Assembly (NCBI GenBank): GCA_016282155.1 | Contig: JAEEJY010000022.1 | Span: 58,817 to 122,816 of the forward strand | DNA from: Bacillales bacterium | GTDB taxonomy: Bacteria; Bacillota_I; Bacilli_A; RF39; UBA660 | Direction: 5' to 3' | DNA: 64,000 nt | Shown here: one piece after another, positions 40,991 to 43,622 of the stretch | Position numbering within the stretch: position 1 is the stretch's first letter | How the letters are laid out: every line of letters begins with the position of its first letter | Notes under the pieces: model-generated | Told to the model about the DNA's origin: nothing | Database searches by the model: none | The model's input: the letters and a program-made list of their open reading frames with translations, nothing else | Made by a program: the position numbers and the translations under genes

Positions 40991-41013
40991 TATGAGGAAA
41001 CTCATATTTTTTT
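40991..41013 (+). terminator. intrinsic terminator after tyrS
   Basis: TATGAG / CTCATA stem, GAAA loop, T7 run. TGTTATAAT follows at 41013-41021. Confidence 0.8.
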
Positions 41014-41040
41014 GTTATAATGAGAATGGTAGGTGAAAAT

Positions 41041-43599
41041 ATGAAAAAGGGTTTTACATTAATTGAATTAATGGCAGTTATCTTAATATTAGGTATCATT
41101 GCTTTAATAGCAATACCAACAATAGGTAATATTATTGGTGATGCTACAATTGATGCTGGTAAAGAATCAGTTAATAATTACATCCGCGCTGTTGAGGATA
41201 ATATCGCTCTTAAGGCTTTAAAAGGGACTACAGTAGATGATGGTTTATATAGTAAAAATGAACTAGCAGATGTTAAAATGCGTGGTAGATTAGACAATGC
41301 TTTTATTGAAATAAGAAATGGCAAAATTGTTTCGGGTTCATTTTGCGCTTTTGATAGAGCATATTCATATGATGGAACTACAGTAATATATCAAAAATAT
41401 CAAACAAACTGTGAAACATCAGAGCGTATAAATAGTAAAGTAGTAAGTATAGTTTCAAATAATGGAGGAGTTAACGGAAACTATATGTTTATAACAGAAG
41501 ATGGCAATTTATATGGCATGGGTTATAACAATTATGGAGTATTAGGCGTTAATCAACATGAGTATGTTGATAAACCAACAAGAATTAATAACGGGTATAA
41601 ATTTAAAAAAGTAGATTTATCTTCAAGAGGAACAGCTATTGGTATTACTACAGATGATGAATTAGTAATATGGGGCTATGATGGAGATTATTATTCTTTA
41701 CTTAATGGAGCAACTACTCCTTCATATCTTGCTTCACAACCAACTAAGGTAAATACAAATATTAAATTTAAAGATATTAGTATAATTGAAAAAAATATTT
41801 ATGCGATATCTACTGATGGGGATATATATTATGCTGGAAAAAAATTCGATGGTTCAAATACGAATATAAGAGTATTAACTTTATTATTAGAAGGTGATTT
41901 TAAAAAGGTATATTCTGATGCTGAATTTGCATATTTTATAGATGAAAATGGCGATATTTGGACTATAGGTAGATCAGGGTATTCGCTTTCTTTATTAGGT
42001 AATGACCCATCATCTATACCAACTAAGGCAACAACAGGATTAAATATTAAAGATATTTTTTATAGAAGACAAACAGGTGGTACAAACCAATATTATGCGA
42101 CAAATAATAATGGTGAAGTATATTTCTGGGGATTTAATACAGGGGTAGCAGATTTACAAACTAGTGCTTATATTAAAAATCCTTATAAACTTACAAGTGC
42201 TTCTAAAGTTCCATACCAAAATGTAACTTCAGTAGCTACTGTAAGTAATAATCTATCTTATTTTGTAGTAGGTAATAGGGTATATAGAGTAAATAATTAT
42301 AATAATAATTATAATACTGATGAAATTAAATTCTCTGAAAATATATCTTCTGTAGCATCAATTTCTGTATCAGATAATTTACTTTTCCTATCAACAAAAG
42401 GTAATTTATATACGTATGGTAGTTTAGGTGCAGCTAGTGGCGTAGGATCTATTGAAATATATACAGAACCTCATGAAGTAACTTTTACTGCTGATGATAT
42501 TTATGTAAATGGTGCTTATAATATAACAACTTTGAATCAAGGAAACGTATATTTCTGGGGTAAAACATATAAAAATAGTATTACTTCACCTAAGCTATTA
42601 AAAACAGGTGTATCTTCTATCTTTGGGGATGAAGTTGCTGCTTATGTGGGTATTTATGCTCTTGATAGTACCGGCAATTTATATGGTGGTTTTGATGCTT
42701 ATTCACCAACTCAAGCTAAGACTGCTTATGCAAGTAATTTCGCAAATATTGATACTTCTTCTTTAACAGCAGCAACTGATTGGAATAAAACTTACTCTAA
42801 GCTTATTTCAAATACTTATACTATATTTGCAATAGCAACTGATGGTAAATTATATGGATGGGGTAATAATAAAGCTAATGCTATTAGCTCTGCTTCAACA
42901 AGTACAAATTATTCAACTCCACAATTAATCTTTGATAGTGAAAAAGTAAAAGATATTAGAGTAAATAATAATAATGGATATATAATTACCGAGGCGGGTA
43001 AATTATATGCTGTAGGTACAAATAATTATGGACAGTTAGGTAATGGTACTAATACGGCGAGTACAAGTTATATTCATGTAATGGATAATATAAAAGATGT
43101 TTATGTTGGAAATAGTTATCAAGTATTTGCGCTTACTAAAGATGGCGATATATATTTCTTTGGTAAACATACAGCTGGATATTATGGGCTAGCAGATGCC
43201 AATATTCTATCTCCACAAAAAATAGATACAGATGTTGAATTTGATAAAATAATTGGTGATGTATTCATTGCTAAAAATGGTGATGCTTATATCTTTGGAA
43301 CTGGTTATGCTGTTTCAGGAAGTAGTAATAGCCTTAATAAATTATCTATTAAAGTAAAACAAGTATTAACTTTTAATAGTAAGAAATATGTCTTAACTCC
43401 TAATGGGATTTTATATAAGGTGGATGGTTCTAAACTTGTTAAAATTATGGATAATGTAACTAACTTATATGGATCAACTTCTATTATGTTTATTAAAGCA
43501 AATAATGGTAAATTATATGCGATGGGAAACCGTAGTAATAATATAATTGAGCCATATAATACAAATCTTAATAGACCAGTTTTAATATCATTGAATTAA
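41041..43599 (+). CDS. type IV pilin-like N-terminal module fused to an RCC1-like beta-propeller repeat array
   Basis: MKKG/FTLIELMAVILILGIIALIAIP, then a Cys pair (SGSFCAF...QTNCE). About 12-14 repeats of roughly 50 aa follow, with motifs such as YGMGYNNYGVLGVN, LYGWGNNKANAIS, LYAVGTNNYGQLGNGTN and IYFFGKHTAGYYGLAD. AGGTGA SD. Confidence 0.8.
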   Translation: MKKGFTLIELMAVILILGIIALIAIPTIGNIIGDATIDAGKESVNNYIRAVEDNIALKALKGTTVDDGLYSKNELADVKMRGRLDNAFIEIRNGKIVSGSFCAFDRAYSYDGTTVIYQKYQTNCETSERINSKVVSIVSNNGGVNGNYMFITEDGNLYGMGYNNYGVLGVNQHEYVDKPTRINNGYKFKKVDLSSRGTAIGITTDDELVIWGYDGDYYSLLNGATTPSYLASQPTKVNTNIKFKDISIIEKNIYAISTDGDIYYAGKKFDGSNTNIRVLTLLLEGDFKKVYSDAEFAYFIDENGDIWTIGRSGYSLSLLGNDPSSIPTKATTGLNIKDIFYRRQTGGTNQYYATNNNGEVYFWGFNTGVADLQTSAYIKNPYKLTSASKVPYQNVTSVATVSNNLSYFVVGNRVYRVNNYNNNYNTDEIKFSENISSVASISVSDNLLFLSTKGNLYTYGSLGAASGVGSIEIYTEPHEVTFTADDIYVNGAYNITTLNQGNVYFWGKTYKNSITSPKLLKTGVSSIFGDEVAAYVGIYALDSTGNLYGGFDAYSPTQAKTAYASNFANIDTSSLTAATDWNKTYSKLISNTYTIFAIATDGKLYGWGNNKANAISSASTSTNYSTPQLIFDSEKVKDIRVNNNNGYIITEAGKLYAVGTNNYGQLGNGTNTASTSYIHVMDNIKDVYVGNSYQVFALTKDGDIYFFGKHTAGYYGLADANILSPQKIDTDVEFDKIIGDVFIAKNGDAYIFGTGYAVSGSSNSLNKLSIKVKQVLTFNSKKYVLTPNGILYKVDGSKLVKIMDNVTNLYGSTSIMFIKANNGKLYAMGNRSNNIIEPYNTNLNRPVLISLN

Positions 43600-43622
43600 T
43601 CATACGCAAGTATGATTTTTTC
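43598..43622 (+). terminator. intrinsic terminator after the pilin-RCC1 gene
   Basis: AATCATAC / GTATGATT stem, GCAA loop, T-run. Confidence 0.8.

Follow-up and report, generated by a model that had tools for sequence, protein, structure and literature searches.

A candidate modular type IV pilin with two RCC1-like propeller regions in an uncultured low-G+C member of the Bacilli

Can a gene that sits alone among housekeeping genes encode a beta-propeller array displayed directly on a pilin stalk? This question is raised by a 64,000-nucleotide stretch of DNA (here called the window) from a Bacillales bacterium of GTDB lineage RF39, UBA660 (GenBank assembly GCA_016282155.1, contig JAEEJY010000022.1, positions 58,817 to 122,816 of the forward strand). 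Within the window, tyrS (39760-40986) and lon (43746-46031) flank a gene for a protein of 852 amino acids (aa), which a first-pass annotation made from the letters alone had described as a type IV prepilin N-terminus fused to RCC1-like repeats. On balance, we favor the view that this gene encodes a modular type IV pilin, probably an adhesin located at a pilus tip. The features that carry this view are a prepilin signal with a small pilin module behind it and a long array of RCC1-like repeats.

Prepilin signal, pilin module, and propeller array

The coding sequence of the modular prepilin (41041-43599, + strand, 852 codons plus a stop codon; defined by an open reading frame [ORF] and by hidden Markov model [HMM] matches) begins with MKKG/FTLIELMAV, and the N-terminus reads MKKG/FTLIELMAVILILGIIALIAIP. 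The claim of a class III signal made in the first-pass annotation is borne out by two curated HMMs that recognize this region above their cut-offs, N_methyl (PF07963; 26.6 bits, curated cut-off 21.2, residues 2 to 25) and TIGR02532 (31.6 bits, curated cut-off 16.3). From these matches, the basic, four-residue leader peptide MKKG (41041-41052, +), which ends in Gly-1, is predicted to be removed by a prepilin peptidase. It is followed by the hydrophobic alpha1-N segment (41053-41118, +), in which Phe1, Glu5, Gly14, and Pro22 can be read from the sequence; in this mature numbering, the combination of Gly14 and Pro22 is a pattern typical of type IVa pilins. Residues 2 to 53 align with the alpha1 helices of the solved pilins MshA, geopilin, PilA, and PilE1.

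The pilin module spans residues 1 to 125 (41041-41415, +), as delimited by DSSP assignments on an AlphaFold2 model, by an alignment of paralogues, and by a dN/dS of 0.10. The model contains a helix at residues 7 to 60 and strands at residues 68 to 71, 86 to 92, 95 to 103, 106 to 110, and 115 to 118, a predicted pilin "lollipop" fold, and the predicted local distance difference test (pLDDT) scores of 10-residue blocks across residues 1 to 120 range from 68 to 93. C102 and C124 are the sole cysteines in the entire protein and are kept in its orthologues and in many paralogous pilin modules, so that the pilin-like module of about 125 aa ending in a Cys pair stands as first described. The pair may close a C-terminal loop by a disulfide bond. 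When we aligned 13 pilin modules that carry mutually unrelated C-terminal modules, G4, F5, T6, L7, I8, E9, L10, and P26 were invariant in all 13, and Gly-1, Phe+1, and Glu+5 are retained without exception in the homologues. When all six frames of the 64-kb window were scanned with a regular expression, G-F-T-L-I-E turned up only twice, in this gene and in the paralogous ORF starting at position 1877. A canonical class III (prepilin) N-terminus joined to a small pilin module is thus supported at the level of sequence and predicted fold.

Beyond this module, the protein matches the RCC1 (PF00415; 62 bits, cut-off 21.7), RCC1_2 (PF13540; 58.7 bits, cut-off 22), and RCC1-like domain (PF25390, WD40_RLD; 176.3 bits, cut-off 150) models, in agreement with the RCC1 signatures noticed earlier, of which the quoted example, LYAVGTNNYGQLGNGTN, lies at residues 655 to 671. 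Counted by the recurring G-x-L-Y-x-x-G strand, there are 15 repeats of 35 to 57 aa each, anchored from residue 155 to residue 823, so the initial estimate of 12 to 14 repeats of about 50 aa was a slight undercount. Seven of them, anchored at residues 155, 206, 260, 304, 358, 412, and 454, make up a first RCC1-like propeller region (residues ~130 to 475; 41428-42465, +), which is defined by the repeats, the AlphaFold2 model, Foldseek comparisons, and HMM matches. The other eight, anchored at residues 501, 545, 602, 653, 702, 747, 788, and 823, make up a second region (residues ~477 to 844; 42469-43572, +), defined by the repeats, a separate model, Foldseek, and HMM matches.

In the full-length AlphaFold2 model (mean pLDDT of 77.4, predicted template modeling [pTM] score of 0.50), a low-confidence linker at residues 120 to 128 leads into an all-beta portion at residues 134 to 830 that is interrupted by a low-confidence break at residues 462 to 481. 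We speak of a double propeller because of this break and because each half alone matches the RCC1-like domain HMM (82 and 93 bits). Comparison of the full model with the PDB by Foldseek returned UVR8, the RCC1-like domain (RLD) RLD2 of HERC2, and RCC1, together with tandem double-propeller proteins; RPGR, an RCC1-like seven-blade propeller, was also among the best matches, and the match to HERC2 RLD2 had a template modeling (TM) score of 0.65 by target length and a root mean square deviation of 4.4 over 343 columns. When residues 466 to 852 were modeled separately (pLDDT of 70.9), the TM scores against the PDB were only 0.45 to 0.5, and all 50 of the 50 best matches were RCC1-like seven-blade propellers. 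Structure prediction therefore returned a propeller fold with RCC1-like PDB matches, and the presence of two RCC1-like propeller regions is well supported by the models. The earlier proposal of a double seven-blade arrangement holds as to the two regions and not as to 7 + 7 blades: every top PDB match is an RCC1-like domain with seven blades, at TM scores of only 0.45 to 0.65, and the repeats in the sequence number 7 + 8, not clearly 7 + 7, so that the second region may have either seven or eight blades.

Gene boundaries, relatives, and genomic setting

ORF prediction gave the interval 41020-43599 on the + strand. The true start is probably the ATG at 41041, which yields the 852-aa product, because the upstream ATG at 41020 falls in a -10 box and AGGTGA precedes 41041. 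A hairpin with a T-run at 40985-41012 (+; RNA folding free energy [dG] of -11.5 kcal/mol, z of -6.3) forms the predicted tyrS terminator, and the extended -10 promoter element TGTTATAAT (41013-41021, +), read from the sequence, starts directly 3' of this hairpin. The Shine-Dalgarno sequence AGGTGA (41031-41036, +) lies 4 nucleotides (nt) upstream of the start codon. At the other end, the predicted intrinsic terminator of the pilin gene (43598-43631, +) consists of a hairpin at 43598-43617 and a T-run (dG of -8 kcal/mol, z of -3.8), and a separate, good promoter match for lon lies at 43693-43721. A consensus terminator scan, which requires three G-C pairs, found none of these terminators; that of the pilin gene was overlooked because its stem contains fewer than three such pairs, and direct folding revealed the hairpins.

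By this layout, the tyrS terminator is predicted to insulate the pilin gene against read-through, and transcription of the pilin gene singly from the extended -10 promoter agrees with the sequence. The elements found are in keeping with the first-pass annotation of a monocistronic gene that has its own extended -10 promoter and terminator. Its choice of start (41041) is also the one adopted here, whereas the extent that it gave to the feature, 41009-43622, includes the promoter and the terminator and is wider than the coding sequence.

The same arrangement, a terminator hairpin with a T-run, TGnTATAAT, approximately 8 nt, AGGTGA, 4 nt, and then ATGAAAAA, forms a cassette that is common to three surface-protein genes of the window (1830-1880, 40985-41043, and 46030-46090). 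Its layout is found ahead of the ORFs starting at 1877 and 46088 and of orthologues at other loci (L001, L002, and L010), and it recurs ahead of several paralogues on other contigs. An extended -10 element is present upstream of 16 of 42 modular pilins, versus 69 of 427 other ORFs.

We searched 1.84 billion representative proteins for homologues and found the full-length architecture in three clusters only, P0001 (90% identity), P0121 (40%, 870 aa), and P0002 (43%, partial), all of which retain the signal and the Cys pair. The remaining top matches were giant RCC1-repeat proteins that align to the propeller part only, and the full-length RCC1 pilin family is rare. P0002 is found in tandem with a paralogue, and P0121 is located after a surface protein with glucosaminidase, SH3, and Ig-like domains. 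Two other proteins look, from their sequences, like independent fusions: P0004 combines a pilin with Big_2 and one clean seven-blade RCC1 domain, and P0016 has a pilin-like N-terminus without Gly-1, plus RCC1.

The 90% identical orthologue (P0001, at locus L001) occupies the same tyrS-lon setting. Identity to the window proteins there is 98.6% for TyrS and 97.3% for Lon, from which it follows that the pilin changes more rapidly than its neighbors do. Relative to this orthologue, dN/dS is 0.19 overall, 0.10 in the pilin module, and 0.20 to 0.24 in the propellers, and the pilin gene is under purifying selection. A 4.6-kb bovine-gut metagenome contig covers tyrS, the pilin gene, and lon at approximately 96% identity. 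Related strains have small insertions after positions 42366-42371. An AAT-rich low-complexity stretch at 42290-42325, which codes for NNYNNNYN (pilin residues 418 to 425), draws many spurious metagenome contig matches and yields a depth spike. "Joints" at these positions in metagenome contigs were rejected as rearrangements and are an artifact of this stretch.

The pilin module has a much larger family than the full-length protein. Of the 120 matches listed, about 95 have MKKGFTLIELLAVILILGIIALIAIP in common, all of these 95 or so keep GFTLIE, and the C-terminal partners of these stalks are LRR_5 leucine-rich repeats (LRRs), DUF285, glycoside hydrolase family 5 (GH5) cellulase, Big_2, and unrecognized modules. 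An alignment of the module, used to scan metagenomes, yielded 80 loci, mostly of 24 to 31% G+C, and these 80, the other loci analyzed, and the window together contain 144 pilin-type ORFs, which range from approximately 50 aa (clipped by contig ends) to 1,584 aa and form tandem arrays of up to five genes. Short classic pilins (115 to 190 aa) with the same N-terminus occur in relatives, including L004/L005, L036, L039, and L064. Judged by their sequences, modular pilins whose N-termini are nearly identical have expanded greatly in low-G+C gut Bacilli, and the window gene appears to be one of many paralogous pilin-stalk genes in the lineage that differ in the grafted module. As individual examples, positions 5047-18767 of L019 hold five modular pilins of 537 to 1,074 aa in tandem, positions 7-4812 of L057 hold the single pilin of 1,584 aa, and P0012, P0014, and P0031 each combine a pilin stalk with a GH5 cellulase and DUF285, with LRR repeats also present in P0012 and P0014.

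The window itself encodes one such paralogue, a modular prepilin of 554 aa (1877-3541, +) with the sequence MKKGFTLIELLTV, which matches N_methyl at 27.3 bits and TIGR02532 at 31.2 bits. Its N-terminus corresponds to that of the RCC1 protein, their stalks are 38% identical, and the layout of its promoter and Shine-Dalgarno sequence is the same. Its C-terminal module differs from the RCC1 array and consists of approximately 430 aa with no Pfam match and a Ser/Gly-rich tail. Recent gene conversion between the two window pilins was considered and rejected, as their N-terminal codons differ at many synonymous sites. A third surface protein, of 362 aa (46088-47176, +), has the N-terminal anchor KKLNNRG/MALSGMLYTILVLF, which lacks Glu5 and is not of the N_methyl type. 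The C-terminal module of this protein is homologous to that of the 554-aa prepilin (E value of 1e-8) and to that of a modular pilin at locus L008 (E value of 2e-15), and thus, by sequence homology, one and the same module appears to be carried by a pilin stalk in some proteins and by a plain anchor in another. The gene for the 362-aa protein may vary among strains, because its middle part (~46384-46951) had almost zero depth in two of four bovine-gut runs.

The window has a G+C content of 27 to 33% locally and approximately 28% overall, and its + strand carries nearly all genes. Its RecA is 85 to 91% identical to proteins annotated "MAG: Bacilli bacterium," it encodes a class A penicillin-binding protein, and it contains a class B RNase P RNA (24669-25012, +; 287.6 bits) as well as a T-box leader preceding pheS (55643-55835, +; 123.8 bits). 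From the RecA identities, the class B RNase P, the class A penicillin-binding protein, and the bovine-gut contig, we conclude that the host is a walled, uncultured, low-G+C member of the Bacilli from the ruminant gut. Immediately after the gene for the 362-aa protein lies an Rnf-type operon (47222-51203, +) that encodes RnfC, a fusion of RnfD and RnfG (RnfD followed by a C-terminal FMN_bind domain), and two further small polytopic subunits that are RnfE-like and RnfA-like in appearance. A 417-aa ORF at 51732-52985 (+) matches nothing in Pfam or NCBIfam; its basic and hydrophobic N-terminus ends in SAYAWFIG, and a protein of L005 (5651-6913) has an N-terminus, AVGYAAFQT, that is similar in look. 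We take the N-termini of these two proteins to be reminiscent of SipW/TasA-type signals.

Pilus tip, membrane anchor, or Tad-type subunit

Were the gene product a modular type IV pilin, its leader MKKG would be cut off after Gly4 by a prepilin peptidase, which may also methylate Phe1. The hydrophobic helix would retain the protein in the membrane until its uptake by type IV filament machinery and, with Glu5, would then dock into the filament. The subunit would occupy the filament tip or prime assembly, because the propeller pair, of approximately 80 kDa, is too bulky for the filament body, and the propellers would act as an exposed ligand-binding (adhesin) module in the ruminant gut. Given the short pilins with the same N-terminus in relatives, filament-forming partners would be available.

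Several results weigh against this reading. No prepilin peptidase, PilB/ComGA/TadA-type ATPase, platform protein, or short major pilin was found in the 64-kb window by a motif scan, by a search for a basic residue plus Gly plus a hydrophobic stretch, by tblastn with the Tad proteins of L008, or by Pfam/NCBIfam searches of ORFs without an assignment. Among approximately 70 related low-G+C loci, each taken with flanks of up to 10 kb and many on much shorter contigs, machinery adjoins the pilin genes in only two, and both times it belongs to a Tad system, a kind that normally handles Flp pilins and not N_methyl pilins. The placement of the domains relative to one another is uncertain in the AlphaFold2 model, as its pTM score indicates, and a search for RNA runs containing the gene stretch found none.

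In most loci, the pilin genes lie among housekeeping genes, away from any machinery. When 2,085 ORFs, drawn from 93 loci, were searched by BLAST, L008 and L031 were the only low-G+C loci with T2SSE/T2SSF. Matches to T2SSE/T2SSF in L041, L081, L086, and L088 were taken as belonging to other lineages because of differing composition or GspG/H/I/J-like pilin arrays. Polytopic membrane ORFs beside pilin genes were rejected as candidate peptidases and proved to be PgsA, MraY, TMEM164, Rce1-like, VanZ, SpoIIGA, and other proteins, and the sole A24 peptidase near related pilins is on a 46%-G+C contig. A search of the literature on RF39/RFN20 and pili found nothing usable.

The dispersal of these genes, which have their own promoters and lie away from machinery, would suit the main alternative, which we hold to be rather unlikely. 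In this alternative, the class III signal and stalk do no more than anchor the protein, once cut by a prepilin peptidase, in the membrane for display at the cell surface, alone or in short stubs, with no long pilus. Archaeal sugar-binding proteins with class III signals (the bindosome) are an analogue of such an arrangement. The many paralogues also speak for it, as their modules are both varied and very large (up to 1,584 aa) and include LRRs, DUF285, and GH5 cellulase, and so does the module shared between the 554-aa prepilin and the non-pilin anchor of the 362-aa protein, which makes stalk and anchor look interchangeable. However, strong purifying selection has kept Glu5, Gly14, Pro22, the full pilin beta-sheet, and the Cys pair, and these filament-packing features count against a mere anchor because it would not need them. 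The existence of short pilins with the same N-terminus in relatives argues in the same direction.

The two loci with adjoining machinery bear on a further alternative, in which the protein belongs to a Tad/Flp-type pilus as a minor or tip subunit, and not to a type IVa or Com-type filament, and is processed by a TadV-like peptidase without N-methylation. Both loci are on related contigs labeled "Bacilli bacterium." At L008 (7988-18945), modular pilins lie beside genes for Flp, two TadE-like proteins, TadZ, TadA, TadB, and TadC, with three tandem modular pilins that have the same N-terminus placed 0.5 to 1.5 kb upstream of the Tad/Flp locus. At L031 (38-3889), a short contig, the platform proteins TadB and TadC are encoded approximately 1 kb upstream of a 459-aa pilin, and no ATPase was seen; in L004 and L005, a Flp homologue lies 2.4 kb from two short pilins. 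This adjacency raises the question of whether Tad machinery may handle N_methyl-type pilins. We nevertheless judge a Tad-type subunit improbable. Genuine Flp pilins, of which L008 and L005 provide examples for comparison, have approximately 50 to 80 aa and the motif G/XXXXEY, unlike the 852-aa window protein, whose GFTLIEL is of the N_methyl type and whose N-terminus follows the type IVa consensus (GFTLIE, Gly14, and Pro22). Moreover, no Flp pilin or Tad gene was found in the 64-kb window, and the adjacency to Tad genes is limited to the two loci among approximately 70.

Finally, it is very improbable that the protein is an ordinary Sec-dependent surface or secreted RCC1 protein with a chance resemblance to prepilins, as one might suppose from the ordinary signal peptide, or none, of most bacterial RCC1-repeat homologues, for the motif scores above the cut-off in two curated models, is invariant across orthologues of 40 to 90% identity and dozens of paralogues, appears at just two places when the window is translated in six frames, and is followed by a predicted pilin fold.

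Alongside our preferred reading of the gene as encoding a modular pilin, we put forward tentatively, as a possibility of fairly low probability, a broader reading for the whole clade of uncultured low-G+C gut and rumen Bacilli. In this clade, the class III signal together with a 120-aa stalk may have turned into an all-purpose means of displaying surface proteins, which form a large and rapidly diversifying set. The modules grafted onto the stalk include double RCC1 propellers, BspA-type LRRs, DUF285, and GH5 cellulases, as well as modules of no known kind that reach 1,500 aa. The genes are dispersed singly or in tandem among housekeeping genes, often behind the shared cassette, and their products may undergo Tad-like handling or no polymerization. 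Seen in this way, the RCC1 pilin would be one component cassette in a combinatorial set of tools, borne on pilus tips or anchored by pilins, and functionally comparable to the cellulosome or the bindosome.

Propeller-bearing pilins and the pilin-stalk lineage

Modular pilins are an established class, comprising over 1,200 proteins and 264 architectures in a census that defined them by an N-terminal IPR012902 motif and an extra domain that is not pilus specific (PMC8179133). With its N_methyl motif and RCC1/RCC1_2/WD40_RLD matches, the 852-aa protein falls within this definition. The members that have been studied are from Streptococcus sanguinis, in which PilB (pilin plus von Willebrand factor A [vWA] domain) is a tip-exposed adhesin and PilC is a pilin plus a lectin (PMC8179133). 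The window protein resembles PilB and PilC in its class III motif, small pilin module, short linker, bulky domain, and monoderm host and, by analogy, in its predicted tip location and adhesin role. It differs from them in carrying a tandem RCC1-like array of approximately 720 aa instead of vWA or a lectin and in its housekeeping setting instead of a pil locus.

The first-pass annotation knew of no characterized example of a propeller on a pilin stalk, but two precedents predate our analysis. Dataset S1 of Raynaud et al. 2021 lists at least four IPR012902-RCC1 architectures, with one protein each (PMC8179133); like the window protein, these entries have N_methyl followed by IPR000408/PF13540 repeats, and they are catalogue listings without study. 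PilX2 of TM7x/Nanosynbacter lyticus, a minor pilin with a seven-blade RCC1 propeller, has been studied genetically; T4P-2 function depends on it and on no other single minor pilin, and it is a proposed adhesin and is without a predicted PilD-type signal (PMC12206443). The window protein and this saccharibacterial pilin share a pilin "lollipop" and a C-terminal beta-propeller of RCC1 repeats, whereas the Gly-1/Phe1/Glu5 signal, the two propeller regions with 15 repeats, and the different phylum set the window protein apart. What marks the window protein out is a canonical signal combined with a tandem array of propellers and membership in a rare family; the overall design had already been described.

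Two other kinds of propeller protein invite comparison. By analogy, the window protein resembles the Gram-negative PilY1/PilC, beta-propeller adhesins at the pilus tip (PMC8179133), and might play a similar part. However, PilY1 is not a pilin, docks via minor pilins, and has a propeller of a different family (IPR008707), and the 852-aa protein had no match to PilY1-family Pfam models at E values of 0.01 or below. Eukaryotic RLDs (RCC1, UVR8, HERC1/2, and RPGR) share the repeat signature and the predicted fold, with E values down to 1e-19 and TM scores up to 0.65, but their identity to the window protein is only 13 to 22%, and they are single seven-blade domains whose intracellular roles are those of a binding platform or of a Ran exchange factor. 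There is no hint of either activity in the window protein.

If the protein is displayed on pili, it would be a canonical, PilD-type-processed pilin bearing tandem propellers of approximately 80 kDa, would extend the known cargo size and complexity of type IV filaments, and would provide, beside PilX2, a second, independent case of RCC1 propellers serving as pilus adhesins. Uncultured, abundant Bacilli of the ruminant and human gut appear to be heavily invested in pilin-stalk proteins, and this abundance hints at a mode of attachment to fiber, to the host, or to other microbes. Type IV pili of rumen Firmicutes have reportedly been linked with cellulose adhesion. Pilin-stalk proteins may also offer handles for enriching or capturing these Bacilli, and the expansion of such proteins across the lineage is a more interesting lead than the single gene from which we started.

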